IMG/VR virus record: IMGVR_UViG_3300049855_000348
Coordinates: 1-64,000 of that record
DNA: 64,000 nucleotides
From: a virus
Direction: 5' to 3' (one strand)
This document shows, in pieces, positions 5,311 to 40,430 of the stretch (within the stretch, counting starts at the first letter, position 1; the number at the start of each line of letters is the position of its first letter). The translations under genes were made by a program, and so were the position numbers. The notes under the pieces were generated by a model. The model searched no databases, was not told the DNA's origin, and saw nothing but the letters and a program-made list of their open reading frames with translations.

Positions 5311-5722
5311 TGCCTACTACACCGACAAGACGCCGCCGCTCATCAAGATGACGGCGTTCACGGATCTGAGCGAGCAGGAAGTCGCCAAGATGCGCTCCTT
5401 CCGCACGGTGTCCGACCCCCTGATCCAGCCCGGTGAAGTGTTCTTCTACATGCCCAACAGTGGCGGTGCGAAGAACATCGAGGGTGATGATCGCTTCTGG
5501 GAGTCGAACAAGCGCATCAGCGCGGCCTTCCTCAACGAAGCGAATCCGATGAACCGTCGTAAGGTCGAAACCCTCCAGTCCAACGGTTCTTCGGTCACCG
5601 AGTTCCGTGAACTCGCTGCCACTGCCGCCCATGCCAACGATCAGCGTTGCATCAAGGTCATGTGGCTCAACCCGGTCACCAGCCCGGACTCCTTTGTCCA
5701 GGTCCGTGTCAACCTGAAGTGA
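5294..5722 (+). CDS. hypothetical protein (first gene of the plus-strand virion/tail block)
   Basis: 142-aa ORF with GAAGGAAAG upstream of the ATG. It is followed by a 12-bp stem-loop. Confidence 0.55.
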   Translation: MTETTNAYYTDKTPPLIKMTAFTDLSEQEVAKMRSFRTVSDPLIQPGEVFFYMPNSGGAKNIEGDDRFWESNKRISAAFLNEANPMNRRKVETLQSNGSSVTEFRELAATAAHANDQRCIKVMWLNPVTSPDSFVQVRVNLK

Positions 5723-14516: not shown

Positions 14517-15059
14517 ATGAGCCCACAAGAGATCATGCGAGCCTACCCAGTAGGCCGCATCCTTGAACTGTCACCTGAGGCGAAGCATCGCATCAAGTTC
14601 CTGGCAGTGTGCCTTGATAACATCGACCTCTGCCAGCGTAAATTGCAAGACAAGCTCGGTGGAATGCATGCAATCGGCCAGCCCGTCACCGGCGAGCAGA
14701 TCACCGAGGTGATCGACAACATGCTCGATGCCCAACCGTTCGAGGGGATGATCTCGCTCACCCTCGGCGAGGGATGGAATGGTCCGGAAGCGATCATCCA
14801 CGCCAAGAATTCGGCTCGATGCCTGCGCAAGGTCATCTGGTCGGTGATCTACGACGATGTCGTCGCCACCTACAGCATCACGTTCTCGGTCTGGAAGAAA
14901 CTCAAGTGCTCGCTGCTGGAGAATCCACCCGGTGGTGGCGTTCTCATTCGTGGCTACGAGTTCGCCGAGAAGGAACTCGGACACGAGGGTAAGTCGAACC
15001 GCCCTGATGTCTGTCCCGACTTCCCACCGATGGGTCTCATGGATGAGGATGAGGAATGA
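14517..15059 (+). CDS. hypothetical protein
   Basis: 180-aa ORF with GAGGA upstream of the ATG. Confidence 0.6.
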   Translation: MSPQEIMRAYPVGRILELSPEAKHRIKFLAVCLDNIDLCQRKLQDKLGGMHAIGQPVTGEQITEVIDNMLDAQPFEGMISLTLGEGWNGPEAIIHAKNSARCLRKVIWSVIYDDVVATYSITFSVWKKLKCSLLENPPGGGVLIRGYEFAEKELGHEGKSNRPDVCPDFPPMGLMDEDEE

Positions 15060-16957
15060 GCAACCTCAACCAAATCATGGAAGCGATCATGTGCTCGGAC
15101 ACCGGCGAGGAGGTCGACACCGACCCGATCGTTGGCCAGCTTGCCGGTGGAAACGCCGTCAGTTGGAAACCGTCTGACCAGATGCTTCAGGCTGCTGCCT
15201 CCCTCGGTTACGGCCAAGGCGTCTCACAGTTGAAGCCGATGATGACCCCCAAGGGTCGTCTGATCGGCTTCCCCTTCCCGACCCCACGTCCCTTTCAACT
15301 TGAAGCTGTGGATGCCGTGCTCGAAGAGTTCAAGGCCGGCAACAACGTTCTATTCGAGGCTGGTACCGGGTTCGGTAAGTCACCACTGGAGATCGGTGTC
15401 GTCTCGGCCTTCCAGTCCGCCTACCTGCTCATCGGTCGCAATGATCTGGTCGACCAATGGGAGCGTGACTTCGATCACTTCAGCAAGATCGGCTTCTACA
15501 AAGCTCGTGCTCGCTTCGACTGCACAGAGATCTCCGGCGATCGTGGCCCTCTCAACTGTTCCCAGGCCAAGACCCCCTGCGGCAAGAAGCGCCAGAGCAA
15601 AGACAACGACTGCCAAGCCTGCCCCTACGCCGTGAATCGTGATGTGGCGCTCGCCAAGCCCTACACCGTGATGACGCTGTCCCTGGGGATGACCATCTTC
15701 AAACACCTCCAGATGCACCCTGGCGTGACCAAGCGTGACGTGATGGTGATCGACGAGTGCTCAGAGCTTGAGTCTGAGATCATGAAGTTCTTCGAGTTCC
15801 AGGTGTCGACCAAGACGCTCTTCCGGGCAATTCAGAAGACGATCACCATGGGTCAGTTCTTCAGCGAAGGGGATGATTTCTATAGCCGCTGGCCGAACGT
15901 CACGCCCAGCACCAACTTCGCCATCGCCATCAACCAAATGCGCCCGATTTCAGACACCTCCGCCTGCTTCCGTTGGGCGATCGAGATCTCAGGCATTGCC
16001 CAGCAACGCATGAACTGGCTTGGTGCCGGCCAGAAGTCCGAGGAGGCTGAGAAGATCGCCGAAGCCTGCGAACAGATCATCCGCATGTGCAAGCAGGTGA
16101 TCGACGCCATCGGCGACAACGTGCCCTACTTCGGGGAGATGGTCCCAGATGAGGTTGATGGCACCTACAAGGTCCGCGTCTCCCCCCTGGAGGCTAAGGG
16201 CATGCTGAGGCGTCTCCTGGCCCCGTACGCGAAACATCTCCTGTTCGTGAGTGCTACGACCGGGTCAGCCGAGATGTTCGCTAGAACGCACTCCCTGCCC
16301 AAGGAAGCGCCTGTCGTCAAGGTGACCGCCCCGTCCGGCTTCCCGGTGGCCAATCGTATGGTCTACAACCTGCGTGCCGGCAACATGAGTAACAAGACCC
16401 AGGTGGCCGACTCCCCCTTGGTCCTGAAGATGCTGGTCGACCTCGCCACCCAACGCCAGTCAGAGCAGCCCCGGTTCGATCACATCAACCAGAAGGGCAT
16501 CATCCACACCTACAACAACAAGATCACGGACATGGTCCTGGAAGCCTTCCGGTCGGCTGGCCTTGGTCACCGGGTGATCCCTCTCAAGGGGTCTGGCAAG
16601 GCTCGTGAGCAGGCCATGGAGATCTTCACCAAGACCACCCAGCCGCTGATCCTGGTCAGTCCCTCGGCGATGCTCGGCCTGTCTCTGAATGACGATCTGG
16701 CCCGCTGGCAGGCCATCGTGAAGGTACCGTACCCGTACCTCGGGGATCAGAGCATTGCCCATCGCAAGGAGACAATCGCAGGCTGGTACGAGTGGCAGAC
16801 CGCCAAGGATCTGATCCAGACCTTCGGTCGCATCGTGCGCTCAGACAGCGACTGGGGATCCACCTACATCCTCGACGACGCCTTCACCGGGTTCTACTCC
16901 CGCAACAGTGATCTCTTTCCTGCGTTCATCCGCGAAGCCATCTGGCAGAAGCCGTGA
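15056..16957 (+). CDS. XPD/DinG-family (Rad3-like) ATP-dependent DNA helicase with a 4-Cys Fe-S-type insertion
   Basis: Walker A FEAGTGFGKS, a DEAH-like VIDECSE, and the Cys cluster C..C..C...C..C between motifs I and II. The C-terminal FGRIVRSDSDWGSTYILDDAF is typical of DinG/XPD. Confidence 0.75.
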   Translation: MSNLNQIMEAIMCSDTGEEVDTDPIVGQLAGGNAVSWKPSDQMLQAAASLGYGQGVSQLKPMMTPKGRLIGFPFPTPRPFQLEAVDAVLEEFKAGNNVLFEAGTGFGKSPLEIGVVSAFQSAYLLIGRNDLVDQWERDFDHFSKIGFYKARARFDCTEISGDRGPLNCSQAKTPCGKKRQSKDNDCQACPYAVNRDVALAKPYTVMTLSLGMTIFKHLQMHPGVTKRDVMVIDECSELESEIMKFFEFQVSTKTLFRAIQKTITMGQFFSEGDDFYSRWPNVTPSTNFAIAINQMRPISDTSACFRWAIEISGIAQQRMNWLGAGQKSEEAEKIAEACEQIIRMCKQVIDAIGDNVPYFGEMVPDEVDGTYKVRVSPLEAKGMLRRLLAPYAKHLLFVSATTGSAEMFARTHSLPKEAPVVKVTAPSGFPVANRMVYNLRAGNMSNKTQVADSPLVLKMLVDLATQRQSEQPRFDHINQKGIIHTYNNKITDMVLEAFRSAGLGHRVIPLKGSGKAREQAMEIFTKTTQPLILVSPSAMLGLSLNDDLARWQAIVKVPYPYLGDQSIAHRKETIAGWYEWQTAKDLIQTFGRIVRSDSDWGSTYILDDAFTGFYSRNSDLFPAFIREAIWQKP

Positions 16958-17145: not shown

Positions 17146-17612
17146 CCAATCTCACTGAACACGCTCAGCGTGTTCTCTCCTTCATGCTCCGTGCGAAACA
17201 GAATTGCCCGGTTGTGCCGACCTTGCCTGATGAAAAGACGCGGATTCTACGGGCGAAGTTGATCTTTGAGGAGGCGATGGAACTCATCAAGGATGGTCTG
17301 GGAATCGATGTCAGCATCGAGACCGACAAGGAAGGGAATGCTGAGTACGCTTTCAAAATCGTCGGCCCTGGTGATCTCGTGCAGATCGCCGATGGCTTCG
17401 CTGATCTCTCGGTGGTGAACACCGGCACGGCGCTCGCCTGCGGCATGGAAGATGTTCGTCTGTTGGAGATCGTCGACCGCAACAACCTCGCCAAGTTCCG
17501 CCCTGGTCATTCATTCCGCGAGGATGGCAAGTTGATCAAGCCACCTGACCACCAGAAGCCGGACTTCAAATCTGAACTCATGCTTCAGGAACACGCAGCG
17601 AAACATGCCTGA
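17136..17612 (+). CDS. MazG-like/PRA-PH-like nucleotide pyrophosphohydrolase
   Basis: ATG at 17136 after AAGGAA. The helical protein carries LIFEEAMELI and IADGFADL acidic motifs. Confidence 0.55.
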   Translation: MSLTNLTEHAQRVLSFMLRAKQNCPVVPTLPDEKTRILRAKLIFEEAMELIKDGLGIDVSIETDKEGNAEYAFKIVGPGDLVQIADGFADLSVVNTGTALACGMEDVRLLEIVDRNNLAKFRPGHSFREDGKLIKPPDHQKPDFKSELMLQEHAAKHA

Positions 17613-17859
17613 AAAAGTTCCATTCGTCCAAGAACCAGACACGTTCATCACTGCAAAACCAGTCGAGAAAAAGGCTGGGAAGCAATGGGTCGTGAAGAAA
17701 GTTCACACCACTATCAAAATCATGGATCAAGATATTCCAATGAAAGATCCAGAAAGTGGTGTGGTTGGTTTTCTGCCAGTTCTGGATGATTATGAGAAAG
17801 CACTTCGTTTCGTAGATGGTGATAGAAGTCTTCTAGCCGGTATCGAACCGGTCACTTGA
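17605..17859 (+). CDS. small hypothetical protein
   Basis: 84 aa. It overlaps the upstream stop, and its own stop overlaps the 5' end of the first tRNA-like RNA. Confidence 0.5.
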   Translation: MPEKVPFVQEPDTFITAKPVEKKAGKQWVVKKVHTTIKIMDQDIPMKDPESGVVGFLPVLDDYEKALRFVDGDRSLLAGIEPVT

Positions 17860-18008
17860 CTCCTATGGTAGCCGTGAAAGCGCAAGGTGTAAAACCCCCA
17901 GGCGAGTAGAACGGAAGGAATCCGAAGTGGGTAGTTGACCAAGCTGTGGCCACAGCCGTCAGCGAGAGCGGAGGAGATAGGTGGGTTCGATTCCTGCCGG
18001 AGTCACCA
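17858..18008 (+). ncRNA. 151-nt tRNA-like RNA with an acceptor stem, T-arm and encoded CCA but a greatly expanded body
   Basis: 5' GACTCC pairs with 3' GGAGTC-A-CCA. The T-arm is GTGGG-TTCGATT-CCTGC. The body carries a copy of the CAAGG..CCCCCAG loop motif and a GCTGTGGCCACAGC palindrome. Confidence 0.5.
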
Positions 18009-18016
18009 AATGCTGT

Positions 18017-18055
18017 GTCCGTGATGGTTATTTTCTTCGGAAACCCATCACGGAC
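18017..18055 (+). other. 11-bp perfect hairpin
   Basis: GTCCGTGATGG-ttattttcttcggaaac-CCATCACGGAC, read directly. Confidence 0.7.
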
Positions 18056-18308
18056 AAGAACCTACGACACACTTGCCAAATTGTTCTTGCAACTGAAATC
18101 AGTCTTGCTACACCTCCACGTACCAGCCATGAGACCTCTCACCTCCATACCAGCCGTTCGCGCCACCAAGTGGCAAGCGAAGCCCATGACCAAAACGGTC
18201 AATGGCGCACAGGGTTGCTTTGGAGTGACAACTGAACGCAATCAGGCCGATCACATTCCGGAACCAGGGTTCATGTAGCAGACAAGGGTAAAACCTCCAA
18301 GCCACATG

Positions 18309-18350
18309 AACCCCGGGACCAAAAAGTCTCGGGGTTCTTCTTTTTCTGAT
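18309..18350 (+). terminator. terminator-like hairpin with a T-rich tail
   Basis: AACCCCGGGAC-caaaaa-GTCTCGGGGTT followed by CTTCTTTTT. Confidence 0.55.
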
Positions 18351-18490
18351 CCTCACGGATCTTGACAACTTTATAATCGTGGAAGCCAATGAGGGGAGAA
18401 ATCCCTTCATTCTTGGACCTACCATCCTGTTCTACTAGACAGGGAAGCCTGTGGGGAGAAATCCTCTAGCCGTGGTGGTGGTCCTGGTAT

Positions 18491-18565
18491 CGTCGAGTAT
18501 TTCAGCGGAAGAATATCTGCATGACATGCAGAAGGTCGGTGGTTCGATCCCACCCTCGACGACCA
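18491..18565 (+). tRNA. tRNA-Val(GAC)
   Basis: 75 nt. Acceptor cgtcgag/ctcgacg, T-arm ggtgg-ttcgatc-ccacc, anticodon arm tctgc-atGACat-gcaga, CCA encoded. Confidence 0.7.
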
Positions 18566-18570
18566 AACAA

Positions 18571-18648
18571 TGCGGAGTAACTGGAGATGGAACCAGCCCA
18601 GCCTCATAAGCTGAACAAACGTGTGTTCGAGTCACACCTCCGCAACCA
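18571..18648 (+). tRNA. tRNA-Met or Ile2 (CAT)
   Basis: 78 nt. Acceptor tgcggag/ctccgca, D-stem ctgg/ccag, anticodon loop ctCATaa, T-arm gtgtg-ttcgagt-cacac, CCA encoded. Confidence 0.7.
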
Positions 18649-18650
18649 TT

Positions 18651-18839
18651 TGCAAGGACCTCTCTGCCCACCATCTCGATCCTAAGAAGAAAGAAGACAA
18701 CATCGGTACGATGGTCAGAAGAAGAGTGGCTATCAAAACTTTGGAAATCGAACTGCAAAAGTGTCTCTGCGTGTGTGAGAACTGTCATCGCAAGATCCAT
18801 GCAGGTATCATCAAACCTTTTCTCAGTGCTGGATCATGA
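18651..18839 (+). pseudogene. HNH endonuclease remnant (HNH core only, no credible start)
   Basis: The frame reads ...SAHHLDPKKKEDNIG...CLCVCENCHRKIHAG.., the H-H...N...CxxCH..H core. There is no ATG upstream of the HH, and the ORF-track start lies inside the tRNA-Met. Confidence 0.5.
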
Positions 18840-18886
18840 CCGAACGCCTGTGGTCATTCCCTGGCGGGCACTCGGATTCTTCACAT

Positions 18887-18963
18887 GGTGGTCGTAGCTC
18901 AATGGATAGAGCACTGGACTGTGGCTCCAGCGGCTGTGGGTTCGACTCCCATCGATCACACCA
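18887..18963 (+). tRNA. tRNA-His(GTG)
   Basis: An extra 5' G (G-1), acceptor gtggtcg/cgatcac, D-arm gctc-aatggata-gagc, anticodon loop ctGTGgc, CCA encoded. Confidence 0.8.
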
Positions 18964-19047
18964 GTTCATTGTGCGGAGTACGCGCCTGACCCAGGCAAGA
19001 GGGTTTGCTCTAACCTCCCAGAGAAGAACGGGAGGTTGCTTCGGCAT

Positions 19048-19121
19048 GGCTTGGTCGCTCAACGGCAGGGCGCTGGTTTGAAAAACCAGAGACGAAGGTT
19101 CGACTCCTTCTCAAGCCACCA
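19048..19121 (+). tRNA. tRNA-Phe(GAA)
   Basis: 74 nt. Anticodon arm ctggt-ttGAAaa-accag, T-arm gaagg-ttcgact-ccttc, CCA encoded. Confidence 0.8.
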
Positions 19122-19133
19122 TCTCCTTCTCAC

Positions 19134-19211
19134 GGTCGGTTCACTGCATGGTGCAGTGTGCGCAAGGACAGTCCCCTAAGCACGGCGGTTCGATTCCCCG
19201 GCTGACCACCA
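19134..19211 (+). ncRNA. tRNA-like RNA A: normal acceptor, D-arm, T-loop and CCA but no canonical anticodon arm
   Basis: Acceptor ggtcggt/gctgacc and D-arm actg-catggtg-cagt. The 26 nt at the anticodon position form only gtgc/gcac around an 18-nt loop, gcAAGGacagtCCCCTAAgc. No 5-bp/7-nt arm is found in any register. Confidence 0.5.
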
Positions 19212-19221
19212 TTTTTTTCAT

Positions 19222-19294
19222 CGGCTGGAATAGGTGCGCGTAAGGCATCAGATCCCCTCAAGCGATGGAGGTTCGATTCCTCCCTGGCCGACCA
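19222..19294 (+). ncRNA. tRNA-like RNA B: 7-bp acceptor, T-arm and CCA with a 38-nt non-cloverleaf body
   Basis: Acceptor cggctgg/ctggccg and T-arm ggagg-ttcgatt-cctcc. The body contains cgc-GTAAGGcatcagatCCCCTCAA-gcg. Confidence 0.5.
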
Positions 19295-19407
19295 AGTACG
19301 ACTTCTCGGGTTCCGCAAGGAACGATCGTCCTACTGGCTACAACGGTGAAAATCCGGTGGATGCCAGAGGTGGTGGGATGGCTCACCAAATAAACTGAGA
19401 CTCATAA
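19295..19407 (+). ncRNA. structured spacer RNA (GNRA-capped helices), homologous at its 3' end to 19485..19592
   Basis: Helices gttcc-GCAA-ggaac, ctggc...gccag enclosing ccgg-tgaaaat-ccgg, and ggtg...cacc, followed by AAATAAACTGAGACT. Confidence 0.4.
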
Positions 19408-19484
19408 GCACCGATCGGCTGGTGGAAAAGCTACCTCCCTTTCAAGGAGATTCTTCGCGGGTTCGACTCCCGTTCGGTGTACCA
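19408..19484 (+). tRNA. tRNA-Glu(TTC)
   Basis: 77 nt. Acceptor gcaccga/tcggtgt, anticodon loop ctTTCaa, T-arm gcggg-ttcgact-cccgt, CCA encoded. Confidence 0.75.
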
Positions 19485-19592
19485 ACGACGGAGCACAGTG
19501 ATCGAAAGATCGACCGGCTAGGCAACTCGCAAGAGTGCTCGAAAGGGCGGAGTCTAGTGGGGTGTAAGCACCTCGAATAAACTGTGAGTTAT
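19485..19592 (+). ncRNA. structured spacer RNA (GAAA- and GCAA-capped helices)
   Basis: Helices gatc-GAAA-gatc, actc-GCAA-gagt, gagcac...gtgctc and ggtg-taag-cacc, followed by GAATAAACTGTGAGTT. Confidence 0.4.
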
Positions 19593-19666
19593 GGTCCTTT
19601 CTGTCAGTGGCAGGCAGCCTGATTCTCAGTCAGACAACGTCGGTTCGATTCCGACAAGGACTACCA
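19593..19666 (+). tRNA. tRNA-Glu(CTC)
   Basis: 74 nt. Acceptor ggtcctt/aaggact, D-arm tgtc-agtggca-ggca, anticodon loop ttCTCag, T-arm gtcgg-ttcgatt-ccgac, CCA encoded. Confidence 0.65.
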
Positions 19667-19670
19667 GCAA

Positions 19671-19766
19671 GAGCGGGACACTGGTTCGAGGCCAGTCATC
19701 GCAAGATGTAGCTCAGGGTGAAAACGTAAGGCATCAAACCCCCAAGTAATCCGGAAGAGCACGCTC
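19671..19766 (+). ncRNA. circularly permuted tRNA-like RNA X1 (T-arm, then GCAA-capped acceptor-like hairpin, then D-arm; the termini form the anticodon-like stem)
   Basis: GAGCG-ggac-ACTGG-ttcgagg-CCAGT-CATC-gcaa-GATG-ta-GCTC-[42-nt insert with GTAAGGcatcaaaCCCCCAAG]-GAGC-a-CGCTC. Every helix was read directly. Confidence 0.55.
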
Positions 19767-19771
19767 TATTT

Positions 19772-19849
19772 GTTCCTGAGGACTAACGGCTAGGTCACCT
19801 CCCTGTCACGGAGTCATTCAAGTGGGTTCAACTCCCATCAGGAACGCCA
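19772..19849 (+). tRNA. tRNA-Asp(GTC)
   Basis: 78 nt. Acceptor gttcctg/caggaac, anticodon loop ctGTCac, T-arm gtggg-ttcaact-cccat, CCA encoded. Confidence 0.75.
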
Positions 19850-19853
19850 ACAT

Positions 19854-19927
19854 CCACGCTTCGTCTAATGGCAGGGCACCGATCTGATACGTCGGATACC
19901 AAGGTTCGATTCCTTGAGCGTGGACCA
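19854..19927 (+). tRNA. tRNA-Ile(GAT)
   Basis: 74 nt. Acceptor ccacgct/agcgtgg, anticodon arm ccgat-ctGATac-gtcgg, T-arm caagg-ttcgatt-ccttg, CCA encoded. Confidence 0.75.
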
Positions 19928-19941
19928 CTTCAGTTTCACAT

Positions 19942-20016
19942 TGTGGGATGGCCTATGTGGTAGGGCACCCGGTTGTTACCCGGACTATACTGGTTCGACT
20001 CCAGTTCCCACAGCCA
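19942..20016 (+). tRNA. tRNA-Asn(GTT)
   Basis: 75 nt. Acceptor tgtggga/tcccaca, anticodon loop ttGTTac, T-arm actgg-ttcgact-ccagt, CCA encoded. Confidence 0.75.
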
Positions 20017-20021
20017 CTTTT

Positions 20022-20097
20022 GGGGTCGTAGCTCAATTGGCAGAGCACCTGTTTTGCACGCAGGATGTTAGCGGTTCAAGTCCGCTCGATTCCACCA
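20022..20097 (+). tRNA. tRNA-Ala(TGC)
   Basis: 76 nt. G3:T70 wobble present, anticodon arm cctgt-ttTGCac-gcagg, CCA encoded. Confidence 0.8.
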
Positions 20098-20167
20098 CGC
20101 GGGAGTAATCTGAGAAATCAGAGAGAATTACCAGCCTCACAGCCGGCAAGGAGTAGACTGTGGTTTT

Positions 20168-20243
20168 GGGGAGTTAGCTCATCTGGTAGAGCGCGAGCAT
20201 GGCATGTTCGAGGCGAGGAGTTCAAGTCTCCTACTCTCCACCA
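20168..20243 (+). tRNA. tRNA-Ala(GGC)
   Basis: 76 nt. G3:T70 wobble present, anticodon arm cgagc-atGGCat-gttcg, CCA encoded. Confidence 0.75.
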
Positions 20244-20602
20244 CTTTCAATCATACGGGCGGCGATATCTCAGAAGCGTAAGGATGATCCCCCAAGTTAT
20301 GAGAAAATCCTATGGGGTGAAAGCCCTCAACTGTCCACCACTCGATCGGAACGTCAGTCGCAGCGTAAGGCTTTTATCAAATCCCCAAGCTGTGCAGTAA
20401 CGCAACTGCTGGTGAAAGACCAGCCTGATCACTCTTCAAACGAAACCCTGGCGGTGAAAAACCGCTTCCTCGGCGCATCCCCTACGTTGGTCTACCTCTG
20501 AAGTTTATCGACCCAGGGCTTCGTGTTTCTGCTAGCTAGATTCATGGGTACCATCAGCGACATCGACGATCAACTCTACGTTCAGCACATCAAGTAACGC
20601 AT
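20244..20602 (+). ncRNA. about 360-nt non-tRNA structured region rich in GNRA-capped helices, with two copies of the GTAAGG..CCCCAAG loop motif
   Basis: Helices gggt-GAAA-gccc, gctggt-GAAA-gaccagc, gcggt-gaaaa-accgc, gcagt-aacgca-actgc and cagc-[GTAAGGcttttatcaaatCCCCAA]-gctg. The only ORFs are short and overlap tRNAs. Confidence 0.4.
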
Positions 20603-20677
20603 ACGTCGATAGCTCCAATGTAGAGCGACGGTTTCCAAAACCGTTGGTTGGGGGTTCAAGTCCCTCTCGACGTGCCA
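20603..20677 (+). tRNA. tRNA-Trp(CCA)
   Basis: 75 nt. Acceptor acgtcga/tcgacgt, anticodon arm acggt-ttCCAaa-accgt, CCA end encoded. Confidence 0.8.
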
Positions 20678-20682
20678 TTCAC

Positions 20683-20757
20683 TGAGAGATAGTTCAACGG
20701 TAGAACGCTGCCCTCTGGAGGCAGATGCTAGAGGTTCGAGTCCTCTTCTCTCAACCA
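20683..20757 (+). tRNA. tRNA-Gln(CTG)
   Basis: 75 nt. Anticodon arm ctgcc-ctCTGga-ggcag, T-arm agagg-ttcgagt-cctct, CCA encoded. Confidence 0.8.
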
Positions 20758-20760
20758 CAC

Positions 20761-20835
20761 TCAGGAATAGTTCAACGGTAGAACGCTGACCTTTGGAGTC
20801 AGTTGCTCCAGGTTCGAGTCCTGGTTCCTGAACCA
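20761..20835 (+). tRNA. tRNA-Gln(TTG)
   Basis: 75 nt. Anticodon arm ctgac-ctTTGga-gtcag, T-arm ccagg-ttcgagt-cctgg, CCA encoded. Confidence 0.8.
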
Positions 20836-20843
20836 TTTCACAT

Positions 20844-20922
20844 CTGCGTGTAGCTCAGCCTGGAACAGAGCACTTGCCTTGGGAGCAAGGGGTCGGAGGT
20901 TCAAATCCTCTCACGTAGACCA
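20844..20922 (+). tRNA. tRNA-Pro(TGG)
   Basis: 79 nt. Anticodon arm cttgc-ctTGGga-gcaag, T-arm ggagg-ttcaaat-cctct, CCA encoded. Confidence 0.8.
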
Positions 20923-20927
20923 TTCAT

Positions 20928-21009
20928 GACGGTCGAGTCGAAAGTCGGGCGCTCCGGCATCAGATTGCAACCCTGATGACAGGTGGTTGAACTCCACCGA
21001 TCGTCTCCA
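20928..21009 (+). tRNA. tRNA-Cys(GCA) with an enlarged (about 14-nt) D-loop
   Basis: 82 nt. Acceptor gacggtc/gatcgtc, D-stem gtcg/cggc, anticodon loop ttGCAac with an A:C at the 31:39 pair, T-arm ggtgg-ttgaact-ccacc, CCA encoded. Confidence 0.55.
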
Positions 21010-21014
21010 TTCAC

Positions 21015-21090
21015 GTGTGTGTATCTCAGTGGCTAGAGAGCTTCCTTGCCAAGGAAGAGGTCGCAGGTTCAAGTCCTGTCACACACTCCA
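21015..21090 (+). tRNA. tRNA-Gly(GCC)
   Basis: 76 nt. Anticodon arm cttcc-ttGCCaa-ggaag, CCA encoded. Confidence 0.8.
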
Positions 21091-21092
21091 AC

Positions 21093-21161
21093 AGGGGCAA
21101 ATGCGGGTTCAACTCCCGCTGCGACTTCGGTCGTATCGTCTAACCCGGTAGGACGGCCCCA
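21093..21161 (+). ncRNA. circularly permuted tRNA-like core X2 (T-arm, then UUCG-capped acceptor-like hairpin, then D-arm); further helices extend to about 21282
   Basis: aGGGG-caaat-GCGGG-ttcaact-CCCGC-t-GCGAC-ttcg-GTCGT-at-CGTC-taacccggtag-GACG-g-CCCC. Downstream helices are ccgtgcgg/ccgcacgg and ccgctc/gagcgg. Confidence 0.5.
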
Positions 21162-21282
21162 CCCCGTGCGGATTGGATACCCGCACGGAATCCGAAGTCC
21201 TCAGGTTCAAGCCAAGGCAACCGCTCGCCGAGCGGAATACAAAATGCGGCTAGAGCAGGGGAGCACGAACGTGGCCCCGTTT

Positions 21283-21356
21283 GCCGATGTAGGTCAATGG
21301 TAGATCTGCTGCCTTCCAAGCAGAGGACGCGGGTTCGATTCCCGCCATCGGCTCCA
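21283..21356 (+). tRNA. tRNA-Gly(TCC)
   Basis: 74 nt. Acceptor gccgatg/catcggc, anticodon loop ctTCCaa, T-arm gcggg-ttcgatt-cccgc, CCA encoded. Confidence 0.8.
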
Positions 21357-21360
21357 TCAT

Positions 21361-21436
21361 GTGTGCCTAGCTCAATGGATAGAGCATCTGACTACGGATC
21401 AGAAGGTTGAAGGTTCGAGTCCTTCGGTACACGCCA
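21361..21436 (+). tRNA. tRNA-Arg(ACG)
   Basis: 76 nt. Anticodon arm tctga-ctACGga-tcaga, T-arm gaagg-ttcgagt-ccttc, CCA encoded. Confidence 0.8.
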
Positions 21437-21469
21437 TTGCATAGCGATCTTTTTGGCTAGCATGTAACC

Positions 21470-21997
21470 ATGTCACTCAAAGATGCCCTCTTTCACTTTC
21501 GTGATCTTGGTTACTACGTTGATGATCAAGGAAATGTATTCAACCCAAGAGGAAAGATTCTTCGGTGTTCAACAAACAAAGATGGTTACAAAAGAATTAC
21601 CACAAGAATGAGAAATCATCCAGTTCATGGGGATTGGTGCCCTAAGGTTGAGGTTCACCGTCTTGCCGGTTATCAGAAGTTCGGAGACAAAATCTTCACC
21701 GAAGGACTTGAGATCTGTCACGATGATGGCGATAAGCGAAACAACGCCAAAGACAATCTGCGACTCGATACGCACAAAAGTAATATGATGGATGTTCCTC
21801 AAGAGGTAAGGATCAATAGAGCAAGACGTGCTGGTAGAGAACATGCCAAGCTAACAGATGAGCAGGTTGCTCACATTCGTTCATCTGGCATGACTCTGAA
21901 ACAGATCATGCAAACATACGGTATCAGTAAGTCTGGTGCCTCCTACGTCAGATCAGGAAAGACTTACGCCAGCCCGTGTATCCCCTCGCTTTCCTAA
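21470..21997 (+). CDS. HNH (HNH_3-type) homing endonuclease with a C-terminal HTH
   Basis: 175 aa with ...GYKRITT...EVHRLAGYQKFG...EICHDDGDKRNNAKDNLRLDTHKSN.. and LTDEQVAHIRSSGMTLKQIMQTYGISKSG. The gene is AT-richer than its surroundings and is embedded in the tRNA array. Confidence 0.75.
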   Translation: MSLKDALFHFRDLGYYVDDQGNVFNPRGKILRCSTNKDGYKRITTRMRNHPVHGDWCPKVEVHRLAGYQKFGDKIFTEGLEICHDDGDKRNNAKDNLRLDTHKSNMMDVPQEVRINRARRAGREHAKLTDEQVAHIRSSGMTLKQIMQTYGISKSGASYVRSGKTYASPCIPSLS

Positions 21998-22051
21998 AGC
22001 GGTGAAAGGGTAACTGGACACATGCAGGTTCAAATCCTGCCTCGGGTACCA
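21972..22051 (+). ncRNA. atypical tRNA-like RNA E1 (possible tRNA-Arg(CCT) lacking a D-arm)
   Basis: Acceptor gcccgtg/ctcgggt (one T:T mismatch), then 7 nt, then arm tcgct-ttCCTaa-agcgg, then 21 nt, then T-arm gcagg-ttcaaat-cctgc and A-CCA. Its 5' end overlaps the HNH gene's 3' end. Confidence 0.4.
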
Positions 22052-22054
22052 CAT

Positions 22055-22132
22055 CGGGGTCCTAGTACGGGAGTGTCTGCATACCATTCGGTCACTACAG
22101 CCTCGGCGGTTCAATCCCGCCAACCTCGACCA
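22055..22132 (+). ncRNA. tRNA-like RNA with acceptor, T-arm and CCA but a long hairpin in place of the D and anticodon arms
   Basis: Acceptor cggggtc/aacctcg (6 of 7 pairs) and T-arm ggcgg-ttcaatc-ccgcc. The body forms agtgtctg-cataccatt-cggtcact, an 8-bp stem with a T:T mismatch and a 9-nt loop. Confidence 0.4.
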
Positions 22133-22135
22133 CAT

Positions 22136-22211
22136 GCGATCGTATTTCAATTGGAAGAACACCACCCTCCGAAGGTGGAAGGTGCAGGTTCGAGTCCTGC
22201 CGATCGCGCCA
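22136..22211 (+). tRNA. tRNA-Arg(CCG)
   Basis: 76 nt. Anticodon arm ccacc-ctCCGaa-ggtgg, T-arm gcagg-ttcgagt-cctgc, CCA encoded. Confidence 0.8.
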
Positions 22212-22214
22212 TCT

Positions 22215-22290
22215 GGTGACGTAGCTCAATGGACAGAGCTTCCAGCTTCTACCTGGATGGTTGGAGGTTCGAGTCCTCCCGTCATCGCCA
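22215..22290 (+). tRNA. tRNA-Arg(TCT)
   Basis: 76 nt. Anticodon arm tccag-ctTCTac-ctgga, T-arm ggagg-ttcgagt-cctcc, CCA encoded. Confidence 0.8.
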
Positions 22291-22294
22291 TCAT

Positions 22295-22369
22295 GCTGCC
22301 ATAGCCGAGTGGTAAGGCACTTCATTCGTAACGAAGAGACCGGGTGTTCGATTCACCCTGGCAGCACCA
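22295..22369 (+). tRNA. tRNA-Thr(CGT)
   Basis: 75 nt. Acceptor gctgcca/tggcagc, anticodon loop ttCGTaa, T-arm gggtg-ttcgatt-caccc, CCA encoded. Confidence 0.7.
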
Positions 22370-22373
22370 TCAC

Positions 22374-22449
22374 GCCCCCATAGCTCAGTTGGTAGAGCAA
22401 CAGTTTTGTAAACTGTAGGTCGTCGGTTCGATCCCGACTGGTGGCTCCA
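22374..22449 (+). tRNA. tRNA-Thr(TGT)
   Basis: 76 nt. Anticodon arm acagt-ttTGTaa-actgt, T-arm gtcgg-ttcgatc-ccgac, CCA encoded. Confidence 0.8.
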
Positions 22450-22456
22450 TTTTCAC

Positions 22457-22530
22457 GCTGCTATAGTTCAGTGGTAAAACACGTCCTTGGTAAGGACGAG
22501 CCCCAGGTTCAATTCCTGGTAGCAGCACCA
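22457..22530 (+). tRNA. tRNA-Thr(GGT)
   Basis: 74 nt. Anticodon arm cgtcc-ttGGTaa-ggacg, T-arm ccagg-ttcaatt-cctgg, CCA encoded. Confidence 0.8.
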
Positions 22531-22535
22531 TTCAT

Positions 22536-22611
22536 CCATCAGTAGCGTAATTGGCAGCGCAGCGGGTTTTTACCCCGTGGGTTGTGAGTTCGACTCTCAC
22601 CTGATGGACCA
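22536..22611 (+). tRNA. tRNA-Lys(TTT)
   Basis: 76 nt. Anticodon arm gcggg-ttTTTac-cccgt, T-arm gtgag-ttcgact-ctcac, CCA encoded. Confidence 0.8.
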
Positions 22612-22617
22612 TCGCAT

Positions 22618-22693
22618 GCATCCATAGCTCAACTGGCAGAGCACTCGGTTCTTACCCAAGGGGTTGGAGGTTCAAATCCTCCTGGATGCACCA
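22618..22693 (+). tRNA. tRNA-Lys(CTT)
   Basis: 76 nt. Acceptor gcatcca/tggatgc, anticodon loop ttCTTac, T-arm ggagg-ttcaaat-cctcc, CCA encoded. Confidence 0.75.
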
Positions 22694-22707
22694 TCATTAC
22701 ATAAGTC

Positions 22708-22941
22708 ATGCCAGCATGGAAATGGATGATCCTGAAGTTCTGTACCAGAGCGCATTTCATGCGGCTCATAGCAACCTTGATCATCCTCATCGCAGGCTTT
22801 CAATCTCTCTACTACCAGAAGATTGAAGACACGTGGTTGATCCTGGTTGGTGCAGTGATGAACCACTACTTCAACCACAAAGAAGCTGCGAACGTCACGG
22901 AAGAAGACAAGAATCCGGACGACGAATGCAAGGTCGGTTAG
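22708..22941 (+). CDS. small two-TM membrane protein (hypothetical) inside the tRNA array
   Basis: 77-aa ORF with two hydrophobic segments (LIATLIILIAGF and WLILVGAVM). Its 3' end overlaps the next tRNA by 10 nt. Confidence 0.4.
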   Translation: MPAWKWMILKFCTRAHFMRLIATLIILIAGFQSLYYQKIEDTWLILVGAVMNHYFNHKEAANVTEEDKNPDDECKVG

Positions 22942-23006
22942 TTCAGCGGTAGAACGCTTCTCTTACACGGAAGATGTCGGGGGTTCGATCCCCTCACCGA
23001 CTACCA
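22932..23006 (+). tRNA. tRNA-Val(TAC)
   Basis: 75 nt. Acceptor ggtcggt/accgact, anticodon arm cttct-ctTACac-ggaag, T-arm ggggg-ttcgatc-ccctc, CCA encoded. Confidence 0.8.
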
Positions 23007-23011
23007 CTTGC

Positions 23012-23091
23012 CGGTCTGTATCGGCTCGGTCTTATAAGCCGTCGAAACCGTAATTGGTTACATGAGGGTTCGACTCCCTCCAGACCGACCA
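23012..23091 (+). ncRNA. atypical tRNA-like RNA E2 (possible tRNA-Ile(TAT) lacking a D-arm); same architecture as E1
   Basis: Perfect acceptor cggtctg/cagaccg, then 8 nt, then arm cggt-ctTATaa-gccg, then 22 nt with an aacc/ggtt hairpin, then T-arm gaggg-ttcgact-ccctc and A-CCA. It lies immediately upstream of an HNH gene. Confidence 0.4.
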
Positions 23092-23126
23092 CAAGGCTTC
23101 CACGATTCCCCTCCAAGGAGAACGCC

Positions 23127-23678
23127 ATGGCACCCGGTGCCTGCATAGTGCTGAACAACTCGTATGCCTTCCTCTCGATCAACAACTGGTTCGAGGCGAT
23201 GCGTCTCGTCGTCCGTGGCCGCGCCGTGCCGCTGGCAAACTACGAGACCAAGATCCGGGCAGAGCGTGAAGAGTTCGACGCACCAGCAGTCGTGATGCTG
23301 AAGCACCACGTGAACCTGGGGCGGAGAAGGCAACCTTTCACCCTGCCATCACATCGCAACATCTGGGTCCGTGATGGTGGGCACTGCGCCTACTGCAATC
23401 ACCCGCTGACGCTGCGGACAGTGACCAAGGAACACGTGATGCCCAGGTCACGCGGTGGAGAAGACAGCCTCTTGAACGTCGTGTCCGCCTGTGGCGACTG
23501 CAACGCCAAGAAGTCGAACCGCACGCCGGCAGAAGCCGGCATGAAGTTCCGTGACGGCATCGAACTGCGTCACCTCAACGATGAGGAGAAGCTGACGGTG
23601 CTGCTCAAGACCTCCCAGAGCCACGAACGGAAGACGTGGCTGGGGTTCCTCAAGAAGCAGGGTCTGACGCTGTTCTGA
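23127..23678 (+). CDS. HNH endonuclease (McrA-like)
   Basis: ATG at 23127 after AAGGAGAA. Motifs CAYCNH...EHVMPRSRGGEDSLLNVVSACGDCNAKKSN are present. The longer ORF-track start at 22974 runs through tRNAs and was rejected. Confidence 0.75.
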   Translation: MAPGACIVLNNSYAFLSINNWFEAMRLVVRGRAVPLANYETKIRAEREEFDAPAVVMLKHHVNLGRRRQPFTLPSHRNIWVRDGGHCAYCNHPLTLRTVTKEHVMPRSRGGEDSLLNVVSACGDCNAKKSNRTPAEAGMKFRDGIELRHLNDEEKLTVLLKTSQSHERKTWLGFLKKQGLTLF

Positions 23679-23896: not shown

Positions 23897-24578
23897 TCAC
23901 TCCATCAAGCCGTCCAGGTCCCCCTTCATCCAAGCACGCACCGTGATGGATCGCCCTGTGCGGTGGTCCCTCACGTTGTCGTTCTGCACCTGGATGGTGC
24001 GGATCTTGTCACCACGCTCGCCGGAGCCTATCTGCTGCCGGCGATCGTCGTTTTGATCGGTATGGTGTTGGGTAGCGATGCCCCCCGCCAGACGCTCCTG
24101 TAACAGGGCCATGGCAGCATGCTTGTTCGACAACTGGTGGCGCTCTTTGTCGGCACGGACAGTCATGCCCGTCGGACGATGGGTGATCTGCACACCCGAC
24201 TCAGTCTTGTTGCGGTGCTGACCACCTGGGCCAGATCCACGGACGGTGATGATATCCAGGTCGCGTTCATCCAGCACGAACTTCTGCTGCTGGCTTCCAT
24301 CGATCACCGCCACGGTGACCGTCGAGCTATGGACACGACCCTTGCGCTCAGTGGGTGGAACCCGCTGCCAACGATGGCCGCCTGCTTCTTGGCTGAAGGC
24401 TTCTTTGGCTCCCTTACCAGTAACGGTGAGCCGCAGAAAGCCGTGAGACTCTTGATCCACTACAACTTCAAAGACCCCTCCGCGCTCCCCATTTGCGATA
24501 GATGGTGAGGTGTTCGCGCACGAGCAATCGTGCGTCCTCGCCGCCTTCAGCGGCTCTGATTTCGAGGTGGATAGTCAT
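23897..24578 (-). CDS. RF1-like peptide chain release factor lacking domain 1; needs a +1 ribosomal frameshift at CTT TGA: join(24578..24471, 24469..23897) on the minus strand
   Basis: Frame 0 reads MTIHLEIRAAEGGEDARLLVREHLTIYRKWGARRGL then TGA. The +1 frame continues EVVVDQESHGF...GGHRWQRVPPTERKGRVHSSTVTVAV...GSGPGGQHRNKTESGV (a PxT-like PPT and the GGQ motif). The slip site is cGGAGGGGT CTT TGA A. Confidence 0.8.
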
Positions 24579-26557: not shown

Positions 26558-27085
26558 ATGAGCAAGAACAAAGACGCCACCACTGATCCCGCCAACGCCG
26601 TCGAATCCGCCCGTGGCATCCTGGAAGAGTTGAGGGAAGAGTTGCAGGCGTGGTATGACAACCTCCCCGAGAACTTTCAGAACGGCAGCAAGGGTGAAAC
26701 CCTCCAGTCCGCCATTGATCAGTTGGAGTCGGCTGACGGGTACCTGGAAGAGCCGCCCACCTGCGCTGAACTGCTCACGGTCAACTACAGCTTCTCGACC
26801 AAGCGGAAGCAGTCCCGCGCCGACCGCTGTGCTGATGCGTGCAGTCTCCTGGCCGGCTGTGTCGATGCCGCCCGCGAGAAAGCCACCGAGCTTCAGGAAG
26901 CCCAGGCGCTCTCCTCCGAAGCCAACCAGGACCAGACCGGCCTGGATGAAGCCACCAAAGAGAAGATCGCCAAGGAAGCCAAGCAGGTTGAATCTGACAT
27001 CAGTGAACTGGAATCGTTCGCTGATGCCTGTGAGAGCGCCAAGGATGAAGCCGAAGCCACTGAGTTTCCAGGGATGTTCGGATGA
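26558..27085 (+). CDS. acidic hypothetical protein
   Basis: 175-aa ORF starting at the predicted +1. Confidence 0.6.
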   Translation: MSKNKDATTDPANAVESARGILEELREELQAWYDNLPENFQNGSKGETLQSAIDQLESADGYLEEPPTCAELLTVNYSFSTKRKQSRADRCADACSLLAGCVDAAREKATELQEAQALSSEANQDQTGLDEATKEKIAKEAKQVESDISELESFADACESAKDEAEATEFPGMFG

Positions 27086-29753: not shown

Positions 29754-30350
29754 ATGCGCTTCTTCCTCCTGCTCCTCCTGTCCTTCTCCACTCTGTTCGC
29801 CGGTGATCCTCCGGCTGCCGAGGCCAAGCTGCCTGCCGATGTGCAGAAGGTAGTCGATGAACGTGATGCTGCGGTGGCCAAGGCCAAGGCGGTCTTCGAT
29901 GCGGCTCAGGCCAAGGCGACGACCGAGGCTATCGCCAAGCTGGAGAAGGTGGTTGTCGCCATCACAAAAAAGGGCGATCTCGCCAACGCTACGGCTATCC
30001 AGAAGTTGGTCGACGAGTACAAGGCCGGGCTTCCGGATCTATTGGGTAAGAAACCAGAAACAAAAATCGATCTTGAGGAGGCGATTGTTGGTGTGAAGTG
30101 GAAATTTTACTGGCAAGGTCTTGGTGGTGAAAACAAGATCATGAGATTTGCCCGTAAGGGTGTCATTAGTGAAGGGTCCAACTTCGGTGAAAACAGTTAT
30201 CGCATCAAGGACGGTGTTCTACAACTTCTCAATCAGAATGGTGGAATACACAGCACTCTCACTCTGAGGGCTGATGGGAATCTTGAAAGTGGAGACACTT
30301 CTGAATCAACCTGGAAGGGGAAGTGCTTCTTGATCAAGGCCGAGAAATAA
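29754..30350 (+). CDS. secreted protein (signal-peptide-like N-terminus)
   Basis: ATG at 29754 after AAGGAA. The N-terminus MRFFLLLLLSFSTLFAGD is followed by an Ala/Lys-rich helix and a beta-rich C-terminus. Confidence 0.55.
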   Translation: MRFFLLLLLSFSTLFAGDPPAAEAKLPADVQKVVDERDAAVAKAKAVFDAAQAKATTEAIAKLEKVVVAITKKGDLANATAIQKLVDEYKAGLPDLLGKKPETKIDLEEAIVGVKWKFYWQGLGGENKIMRFARKGVISEGSNFGENSYRIKDGVLQLLNQNGGIHSTLTLRADGNLESGDTSESTWKGKCFLIKAEK

Positions 30351-31146
30351 TCCTGATCAGTTCGTTGTTTTTCACGTCCTGACAGAATGATGGGCGATCA
30401 ATAAGAAGGCTGTCGTTTTCAAATACGTCGATCGACAGCCTTTCAACTTCTGCCCATCTATAGAGAAAATGAAAGTGGTAGGAGTAGATCTCGAAGTCTG
30501 ACTCAACCTGAAGAAGTCGACCATCGATGTAGCGAACGGCTGGATGAATGCCTTTGTGATTCTGAAGAGAGTCGCGGCCAACGTGCTTGGCTCCAACTCG
30601 CTTCATCGCTATGGAAAACCACCGCTCATCAAGACAATGATGTTTTTCAGTATCGCAGATCTTTTGCCGAAAGTCCAGATCTTCTGAAAATTCTTTGAAC
30701 CACTTTTCTTGAGTAGAAGAAAAGTAGTCATTTTTGAACCATGTCCAATATCCTCCGATGCGATCATAATGACTGATTATTTCAACATCGTCAGAGATCA
30801 GATTTTTTACTAGATCGTAGTTTCCGTACATGGCATCCATGTCGGTCCACATAAAACAATCGTAATCTTTGATGATGTCGTTGAAGATCCAATAGAAGAG
30901 CGGTCGAAGATCACAAATTTTATAGGCATGCGGAAGACCCTTGAACTCTGGAATTATCTTTCTTACACGCTCGTTGATGTCCTCCATCGACATCTTTACG
31001 AATTCCATGTTAGGATACATCTTGGGAGGAGGTGTATCAGCAATAACGATGTACTTGTCGATTCCCTGCTTCGCACCTGAACGTCCAGTCAGGTGCCAGA
31101 TCTTAGGGTAAGGTCCCTGCCAAACGTTGAGCATGCAAGAACGCAT
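30334..31146 (-). CDS. putative glycosyltransferase (DUF6625-like pattern)
   Basis: 270 aa with YKICDLRPLFYWIF..DYDCFMWTDMDAMYGN. Last gene of the AT-rich minus-strand operon. Confidence 0.45.
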   Translation of the reverse strand: MRSCMLNVWQGPYPKIWHLTGRSGAKQGIDKYIVIADTPPPKMYPNMEFVKMSMEDINERVRKIIPEFKGLPHAYKICDLRPLFYWIFNDIIKDYDCFMWTDMDAMYGNYDLVKNLISDDVEIISHYDRIGGYWTWFKNDYFSSTQEKWFKEFSEDLDFRQKICDTEKHHCLDERWFSIAMKRVGAKHVGRDSLQNHKGIHPAVRYIDGRLLQVESDFEIYSYHFHFLYRWAEVERLSIDVFENDSLLIDRPSFCQDVKNNELIRIISRP

Positions 31147-31147
31147 C

Positions 31148-39878: not shown

Positions 39879-39967
39879 TGGCGGAAGTGGCACGAATCGA
39901 ACGTGCAAGACCCGTGAAGGTCTGTTGAGGTTCAAGCTCAGTCCCCTCGCCTATAGGGAGCACTTCC
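39879..39967 (-). tRNA. tRNA-Ser(TGA), class II
   Basis: 89 nt. Acceptor ggaagtg/cacttcc, anticodon loop ctTGAac, long variable arm agacc-ttcac-gggtct, T-arm gcacg-ttcgatt-cgtgc, CCA encoded. Confidence 0.75.
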
Positions 39968-39972
39968 ATGAA

Positions 39973-40064: not shown

Positions 40065-40069
40065 ATGAA

Positions 40070-40429: not shown

Positions 40430-40430
40430 G

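Follow-up and report, generated by a model that had tools for sequence, protein, structure and literature searches.

We analysed a window of 64 kilobases (kb; positions 1–64,000 of the IMG/VR virus record IMGVR_UViG_3300049855_000348) from the 220-kb genome of an uncultured large phage, in which several of the stretches between the transfer RNA (tRNA) genes of the first of two tRNA arrays are not tRNA. A short RNA motif belonging to these stretches has a defined anatomy, with an invariant core enclosed by a covarying helix, is conserved in the arrays of related phages, is carried in multiple copies per genome on tRNA-like scaffolds and matches no catalogued RNA family. Our preferred reading, to which we give a probability of roughly 0.4, is that the motif is a docking site carried by tRNA mimics, with a protein of phage or host as the most likely partner, and that the RNAs act as a sponge or decoy or as adaptors.

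Anatomy and covariation of the motif

ARAGORN called 25 tRNA genes at 18491–23006 (+ strand) and 8 at 39879–40769 (− strand) of the window. Megablast of the window against isolate phages gave no match and the best tblastn identity was 28%, indicating that there is no close isolate phage. The window helicase (15056–16957) is identical to a JGI protein retrieved in a search for helicase homologues, and related arrays were located via such homologues at loci L006 (83% identity), L005 (60%), L009 (59%) and L010 (54%). A further locus, L007, is the same phage as the window, and helicase relatives at 36–39% identity had no tRNA array downstream at the corresponding position.

An earlier note on this DNA had listed seven copies of a recurrent hairpin-loop motif in the first array. 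All seven were found, all on the tRNA-sense (+) strand, and their coordinates were approximately right, being shifted by 0–11 nucleotides (nt) from the true positions (Y of YAAGG at 17883, 18283, 19163, 19241, 19727, 20279 and 20366). The recurrence stood up to shuffling: the pattern as first written matched six times in 17858–20602 against a mean of 0.06 in dinucleotide-preserving shuffles, a pattern covering all seven copies matched seven times against shuffle means of 0.17–0.34, and none of 1000 shuffles attained the observed count with either pattern. This test is optimistic in that the pattern was written after the copies had been seen, and independent evidence was therefore sought. Pattern matches at 5560 and 26689 are not copies of the motif, as both encode a shared peptide, K(V/G)ETLQS, in two open reading frames (ORFs; about 5294–5722 and 26558–27085, + strand) whose similarity points to paralogous proteins; a match at 22491 was also discarded, lying inside tRNA-Thr.

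The motif consists, in order, of a closing helix, an internal loop, two G:C pairs and an apical loop. Its conserved bases form the internal loop and the G:C helix of 2 base pairs (bp), while the apical loop (3–12 nt, with no two copies sharing a sequence) is the variable part, so that the original description as a hairpin loop was mistaken; the closing stem described with it is present, but helices flank the conserved bases on both sides. The internal loop measures 4 × 4–6 and is predicted to be non-Watson–Crick, with a 5′ strand G-Y-A-A and a 3′ strand of C/U, 0–2 extra nt and then A-A/G. The GYAA strand resembles GNRA in sequence, and the opposite strand sets pyrimidines facing the two adenines. 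The 3′ strand takes the forms CCAAG; CUAAG, confined to copies with Y = C; CUCA(A)G, confined to copies with Y = U; and CCAG. L005 and L010 contain a subtype, GAGCAAGG..CCCCAGAAGG, of which L006 has a variant form, CCCCCUAGAAUU. Across 14 aligned copies, no variation is seen at C, G, A-A-G-G, C-C-C and A-A-G.

The closing helix comprises 3–6 bp and is free in sequence apart from its C:G inner end. With 19 copies placed on fixed anchors, the first closing pair, between the G of the 3′ A-A-G and the C before G-Y, is C:G in 18 copies and U:G in one, the second is standard in all 19 (G:C 12, G:U 5, A:U 1, C:G 1) and the third is standard in 15, using all four Watson–Crick types (AU 5, GC 5, UA 5 and CG 4 as counted with the covariation evidence). 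Sliding the partner strand by 1–3 nt lowered pairing from 62/76 to between 12/76 and 30/76. A covariance model, R1, was built from 14 copies, and covariation was computed on 22 matches realigned to it: 23 cells were changed on both sides compared with 7.7 in shuffles (0 of 500 reached this value), and the covariation score was 0.42 compared with 0.08–0.20 for slid structures. It is the outer closing helix that covaries; the GG/CC pairs, for which the earlier note had proposed the same check, never vary and thus cannot covary, and say nothing either way. With the core invariant, the closing helix covarying and the apical loops all different, selection targets the non-canonical internal loop rather than the whole hairpin, and is indifferent to the sequence of the helix and apical loop.

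These observations bear on the possibility that the motif has no function of its own and that its copies are paralogous remnants of an ancestral tRNA-like gene, or a spreading small palindromic insertion, alike through descent. A single clade of five genomes carries the motif, its arrays contain homing endonuclease genes and turn over rapidly from one relative to another, and some window copies have loop words in common (e.g. CAUCA), all of which would suit such an origin. Descent alone, however, would predict helices and apical loops as conserved as the core, in place of the covarying helices and scrambled loops seen around an invariant core, and orthologous copies retain the core across phages whose helicases are only 54–60% identical; we regard this explanation as improbable.

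The 5′ strand of the motif also invites comparison with the Shine–Dalgarno (SD) sequence, as the 3′ end of 16S ribosomal RNA is able to pair with UAAGG(A), and AAGGA is present in about half of the copies (roughly 12 of the 23 listed). Titration of ribosomes through anti-SD pairing is nevertheless, together with a role as small-ligand aptamer, the least credible of the explanations considered and very improbable: the GG is predicted to pair with an equally conserved C run that has no anti-SD role, Y is C rather than U in about half of the copies, and complementary targets are not enriched in the window.

tRNA-like RNAs carrying the motif

Six of the seven copies lie on tRNA-derived bodies, in line with the original suggestion of a module grafted onto tRNA-like scaffolds. 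The same module occupies differing scaffold positions, namely the anticodon-loop position, the D loop or D arm, or an arm of a three-way junction, and the presence of one module at different places of different tRNA-derived scaffolds points to modular use.

The first carrier is a tRNA-like RNA of ~150 nt at 17858–18008 (+ strand), with acceptor GACUCC/GGAGUC, discriminator A, an encoded CCA and a T arm at 17980–17998 (loop UUCGAUU); its first internal arm holds the motif hairpin (17877–17907; GC-GCAA-GG ... CC-CCAG-GC; R1 19.4 bits). In the L006 orthologue (3797–3955), compensatory changes affect the acceptor, the T arm and the inner helices; the motif arm has the outer helix CCGU/ACGG in the window and CCAG/CUGG in L006. 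Two further carriers present the motif at the anticodon position, as first reported. In the tRNA mimic tl1 (19134–19211, + strand), which has a 7-bp acceptor, a D-like hairpin with GG in its loop, a T arm and ACCA, the 5-bp 'anticodon' stem UGUGC/GCACG is capped by the motif (19157–19185; R1 30.0 bits), an 18-nt motif hairpin replacing the 7-nt anticodon loop. Orthologues of the tl1 type directly follow tRNA-Phe in L005, L006, L009 and L010 and are thus syntenic in five of five arrays, the window included. In the D-armless mimic tl2 (19222–19294, + strand; acceptor CGGCUGG/CUGGCCG, T arm GGAGG-UUCGAUU-CCUCC, ACCA), the motif hairpin (19235–19267; R1 17.7 bits) is the sole internal arm and has the 3′ strand variant CCCCUCAAG.

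Between tRNA-Glu and tRNA-Asp lies a circularly permuted tRNA-like RNA (19670–19767, + strand; R1 28.2 bits). Its 5′ part consists of a terminal helix AGAGCG/CGCUCU (the anticodon-stem analogue), a 5-nt variable loop GGACA and a T arm CUGG-UUCGAGG-CCAG, followed by a closed 4-bp acceptor CAUC-GCAA-GAUG, UA and a D arm GCUC..GAGC, inside whose loop the motif hairpin (19721–19751) is found where it had been placed originally. Relative to the L006 orthologue, 8 of 23 pairs are changed on both sides. The copies at 20279 and 20366, previously described as free hairpins, are not free and form arms of three-way-junction RNAs with acceptor-like stems. The RNA at 20257–20340 (+ strand; R1 30.5 bits) has a stem GGGCGG/CUGUCC followed by ACCA, a long arm with the motif (20273–20301) and a short arm GGGGU-GAAA-GCCCU that substitutes for the T arm; its L006 orthologue (about 6790–6875) shares this architecture, without CCA. 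The RNA at 20344–20432 (+ strand; R1 30.2 bits) has a stem GAUCGG/CUGAUC without CCA, a motif arm (20360–20394) and a second arm CUGGU-GAAAG-ACCAG, and no orthologue was seen in L006. A further arrangement is found in L005, where the motif takes the place of the D arm in an otherwise tRNA-looking RNA with a CUGCGAA loop.

None of the motif carriers was called as tRNA by ARAGORN or by the Rfam tRNA model (RF00005) at E ≤ 10. A 7-bp acceptor, a UUCGAUU-type T arm and a 3′ CCA are present in the 17858–18008 RNA, tl1 and tl2, with compensatory changes in orthologues, and this set is only partly present in the two three-way-junction RNAs. The carriers keep the tRNA features recognised by RNase P, 3′-end maturation and CCA enzymes.

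The hairpin might itself be a cleavage or processing signal, that is, a site at which a host or phage endoribonuclease or RNA-modifying enzyme matures, inactivates or turns over these RNAs or the operon transcript. Its strict sequence conservation beside arbitrary helices recalls nuclease sites, and it always lies within what would be a densely processed polycistronic tRNA transcript. The flanking tRNA-like structures, however, already supply processing signals, the motif is positioned at distal arms inside the predicted mature RNAs instead of between RNAs, and HNH homing endonucleases are the only nucleases recognised nearby among the ORFs scanned; we regard this explanation, too, as improbable.

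Distribution and specificity

The motif recurs in all four related arrays (L005, L006, L009 and L010), with two to six copies in each, which bears out its conservation in homologous arrays. The interval from tRNA-Phe to tRNA-Glu(UUC) holds motif-bearing RNAs in five of five arrays and part of the copies occupy syntenic positions across relatives, while the set of carriers differs between related phages.

In 108 kb searched on both strands (the window plus the related loci), R1 gave 22 matches at E ≤ 10, all on the + strand and all inside arrays, with no match elsewhere in the window or in its second, minus-strand array. On 279 kb of controls including five unrelated phage tRNA arrays (Xanthomonas phage X1, Caulobacter phage CcrSC, Sinorhizobium phage Phosso, phage DSS3_MAL1 and Xanthomonas phage Xoo-sp13), nothing scored above 19 bits, so that phage tRNA arrays do not carry the motif as a rule. 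Rfam searches, at the gathering threshold and at E ≤ 10, returned only tRNAs and sub-threshold tRNA look-alikes, consistent with the initial impression that this is not a recognised named motif, and BLAST against isolate phages in near and distant modes gave T-arm or tRNA matches only. Protein-seeded scans of IMG/VR found no syntenic relative of the clade, and an IMG/VR scan with a pattern combining motif and T arm gave one match, a false positive formed by a host tRNA at an attachment (att) site. A pattern scan of JGI metagenomes gave 27 matches, essentially all unrelated (e.g. long-variable-arm tRNAs); it returned neither the window nor L005, both of which are probably absent from that collection. 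Loci L018 and L041 resemble the first window copy but were selected by pattern, and score 18.7 bits with R1. Among the collections scanned, the motif-bearing clade comprises five genomes only. Separately, an unrelated metagenome contig (L034, reverse strand, about 1320–1450) encodes a tRNA-like RNA whose two T arms (GGGUUCGACUCCC and GGGUUCGAUUCCC) lie within CACCAGG/CCUGGUG.

Comparison with known RNAs

YrlA and related bacterial Y RNAs (RF02553) are tRNA mimics composed of a T arm, a closed acceptor-like hairpin and a D arm, with ends that form an anticodon-stem analogue; they occur in phages with large tRNA sets and are adaptors presenting a protein-binding element on a tRNA-shaped body (PMC4201824; bioRxiv 10.1101/312249). 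The permuted domain order of the Rfam consensus is shared by the 19670–19767 RNA, alone among the carriers. Most carriers here, in contrast, are unpermuted and end in CCA, and the motif sits in the D loop or anticodon-loop position, unlike the Rsr-binding motif of YrlA, GNCGAAN0-1G, which lies on the 5′ strand of the terminal stem (PMC4201824). The YrlA gathering threshold of Rfam (69 bits) was not reached in the window, the best non-tRNA match scoring 27.3 bits at 21102–21154 and none being obtained at 19670–19767. An Rsr site was rejected as an identity for the motif, given that GCGYAAGG contains one pyrimidine too many and is located on internal arms, and that the terminal stems of the carriers lack GNCGAA; the word GGAAUCCGAAGU at 17921 and 21191, considered under the same reading, is not conserved in L006. 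Y RNAs usually have a Ro60/Rsr (TROVE) gene as a neighbour in their genome; no TROVE domain was found in the 30 ORFs scanned, and no such gene was seen in the window, which covers 64 kb of the 220-kb contig. The 27.3-bit match, which covers Rfam YrlA positions 30–81, belongs to a second permuted tRNA-like core at 21091–21200 (+ strand), with T arm UGCGGGUUCAACUCCCGC, closed hairpin UGCGAC-UUCG-GUCGUA and a D arm, enclosed by GGGGC/GCCCC; this core carries no motif.

The nearest named motif by sequence is the 11-nt GAAA tetraloop receptor (CCUAAG...UAUGG), which likewise has an asymmetric internal loop beside two C:G pairs and an A-A step before G. This likeness lends some weight to the possibility that the motif is an RNA–RNA tertiary-contact module, its loop docking onto a helix or a GAAA-type loop; within the same RNA such a contact would fix the shape of mimics that have no normal D or anticodon arm, and with another RNA it would lead to RNA-only assemblies. 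Supporting features are the GNRA-like GYAA strand, an A-A/C-rich strand partly like that of the receptor, an exact CCUAAG on the 3′ strand of three copies and the resemblance of AAGG to UAUGG. The tolerance of known receptor variants to changes at the flipped-out U9 and to an extra A (bioRxiv 10.1101/2024.03.11.584472; PMC2275092) also counts in favour, as does the recurrence in the array of GAAA, GAAAG and GAAAA loops, two of which, on the arms at 20316 and 20412, share their RNA with a copy of the motif. The register, however, does not fit the receptor, in which a G:U pair stands immediately before the A of the U.A handle: in 19 of 19 copies the terminal G is paired to the C located two positions 5′ of Y, leaving an invariant extra G-Y, so that the 5′ strand G-Y-A-A-G-G has two extra conserved bases, and the position of receptor U3 is usually C. 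With CCUAAG present in only three copies, identity with the receptor was rejected. Moreover, neither tl2 nor the tl1-type RNAs have a GNRA or GAAA loop; the L005, L009 and L010 arrays, all of which contain the motif, lack both a cognate GAAA loop and GUGAAA hairpins; and no single partner element is shared by all scaffolds. We therefore judge a tertiary contact to be unlikely, if deserving of more weight than the explanations dismissed above.

The GUGAAA sequence itself occurs at seven sites on the + strand of the window (17874, 19346, 19718, 20317, 20412, 20454 and 22002), most of them in hairpin loops, and at three sites in L006. Two of the hairpins, CUGGU-GAAAG-ACCAG (20409–20423) and GCGGU-GAAAA-ACCGC (20451–20465), have the shape of lambda boxB pentaloops.

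Several other identities were set aside. A kink-turn, which has a 3-nt bulge and then tandem sheared G.A/A.G pairs, was rejected from the motif consensus as read in the sequence, no G.A/A.G tandem being placeable next to the GG:CC helix. Transfer-messenger RNA, standard or permuted, was not found by ARAGORN, and Rfam gave fragments of 13–17 bits only. By the same kind of sequence reading, the motif is not an intron with a bulge–helix–bulge, as a 7-nt anticodon loop containing U33 does not result when the GG..CC hairpin is removed, and the two strands of the loop lie opposite one another without stagger. A resemblance to the RNase P CR-II/double T-loop (GGUAAGGGUGAAAGG) was set aside, the word order being reversed here, and pairing of the small RNA type was rejected, complements of the conserved strands not being enriched in the window. 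The species 1 and 2 RNAs of phage T4 are small stable RNAs with partly tRNA-like ends that share a transcript with phage tRNAs and depend on the tRNA-processing machinery for their maturation; we know of no sequence motif that they have in common with these carriers. RNAs of the CsrB/RsmZ type display many copies of one short motif on hairpins and titrate a protein, and are similar in having a multicopy hairpin motif, many copies of which read AAGGA here. They differ in that the GG of the present motif is paired, the C run is co-conserved and the copies are spread over separate tRNA-like RNAs.

Elements in and around the arrays

The copy with Y at 18283 (GACAAGG..CCUCCAAGC) diverges from the other six; it lies within a hairpin and terminator region at 18265–18337 (+ strand) and is not reported by R1 at E ≤ 10. 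The 5′ arm of its hairpin is the end of a conserved 49-amino-acid ORF (stop codon 18276–18278), and an intrinsic terminator follows at 18308–18337; orthologues keep the 3′ strand CCUCAAGC and differ in the 5′ strand (GCACAGGG, GAUAGAGG). A conserved ORF of 42–49 amino acids (MRPLTSIPAVRATKWQAKP..GAQGCFGVTTERNQADHIPEPGFM), with its stop codon in a conserved hairpin, lies just upstream of every array (window 18129–18278, + strand; L006 4053–4202; L005 12278–12418; L008 4639–4779; L009 4486–4623; L010 2174–2302), and its alignment is too variable to seed a locus search. From its sequence, the combination of small ORF, stop-codon hairpin and terminator resembles the layout of a leader peptide or an attenuator. 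The terminator is followed, ahead of the first tRNA, by a conserved box, AACTnTATAnCGTGGAAGC(C) (18362–18386, + strand), also present in L005, L006, L008, L009 and L010, which may be a phage-specific promoter for the array; a false motif match at 23092 arises from a partial reverse-strand copy of this box at about 23104. Between the promoter-like box and tRNA-Val, two GGAAGCC-N-GGGGA-GAAA-UCC(C) repeats (18380–18475, + strand) form GAAA tetraloop hairpins. Immediately upstream of the array region, an 84-amino-acid protein (17605–17859, + strand) with the conserved motif V(F/L)DDYEKAL is encoded, as it is in L005, L006, L008 and L009, and has no Pfam or PHROG match.

Within the first array, a tRNA-Asp(GUC) gene at 19772–19849 (+ strand; Rfam 42.9 bits, encoded CCA) was missed by ARAGORN and is syntenic in L005, L006, L009 and L010. 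Tracts at 21972–22048 and 23010–23089 (+ strand) are tRNA-like elements with a T arm and CCA, also uncalled by ARAGORN and sub-threshold in Rfam (tRNA 28.0 bits and tRNA-Sec 26.6 bits, respectively). A conserved hairpin of ~110 nt at 20436–20545 (+ strand; L006 6876–6972), ACGAAACCCUGG ... CCAGGGCUUCGU followed by a U-rich tract, encloses a boxB-like hairpin and may be a large terminator or a structured RNA. The array also contains two HNH homing-endonuclease ORFs (21470–21997, Pfam HNH_3, and 22974–23678, HNH/HNH_5; both + strand), with HNH ORFs likewise present in the L005 and L010 arrays, and a small ORF (18621–18839, + strand) with a CxxC..H..H signature and no Pfam match.

The first array is adjoined by a gene for a protein with an RF-1 domain (peptidyl-tRNA hydrolase/ArfB-like; 23897–24460, − strand), and the second by an ORF with a weak RelA/SpoT-like match (43593–44246, + strand; 23 bits, below the cut-off); the targets of both families are tRNA or the ribosome. 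Elsewhere in the window, a low-GC island at about 30000–34000 (0.43–0.46 vs about 0.56 elsewhere) encodes, on the minus strand, a 953-amino-acid fusion of a glycosyltransferase and an FkbM methyltransferase.

Proposed role and implications

The motif would, in our preferred reading, be a self-contained RNA recognition module, made up of a free helix ending in C:G, the internal loop, the two G:C pairs and a disposable apical loop. The phage would display it in five to seven copies on small RNAs mimicking the upper half of a tRNA, with acceptor stem, T arm and often an encoded CCA. These carriers would be excised from the tRNA operon transcript by tRNA-processing enzymes, with RNase P acting on the 5′ side and trimming at the 3′ side, and should then be stable. 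The internal loop would dock a protein of phage or host, and the carriers would act as a multivalent sponge or decoy, or as Y-RNA-like adaptors tethering a factor to a tRNA-shaped handle. A protein is preferred as the partner because no RNA partner is common to all carriers and because the number of copies and the turnover of carriers resemble what titration or an arms race would produce; several copies per genome together with differing carrier sets are the pattern of titrating or adaptor RNAs.

Several points weigh against this reading. The processing and stability of the carriers, and the existence and identity of a binding partner, are what we infer; no RNA-binding domain was recognised in the ORFs scanned around the arrays, and no partner was identified in these 64 kb of the 220-kb genome. 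The single-sequence structure prediction of the 84-amino-acid upstream protein has a predicted local distance difference test (pLDDT) score of 43 and is unusable. The GG:CC pairs and any pairing inside the loop are not verifiable by covariation, being invariant, and with a clade of only five related genomes part of the conservation could reflect common descent.

In a more specific and somewhat less probable version, these RNAs would be a new class of phage non-coding RNA, tRNA or Y-RNA mimics in which a docking loop replaces decoding or elbow elements. Their multicopy capture or redirection of a host tRNA-handling factor (e.g. a defence nuclease directed against tRNA, a modification enzyme or a translation factor) would then constitute an RNA-based device for counter-defence or takeover.

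At present, phage tRNA arrays are interpreted chiefly as a stock of spare parts by which the phage circumvents host defences that cleave tRNA. A sizeable share of the array described here is not tRNA and consists of tRNA-shaped RNAs sharing one conserved, uncatalogued internal loop. The natural design, in which a tRNA scaffold carries a functional hairpin in its anticodon arm, is also the one that engineers use for expressing stable RNAs. Even without a known partner, the covariance model and the scaffolds delimit a candidate RNA family and make metagenome searches for it feasible. Should the loop bind a factor of the host or of the phage, it would represent a compact, portable RNA–protein or RNA–RNA recognition module and a new RNA-based way of manipulating tRNA biology.

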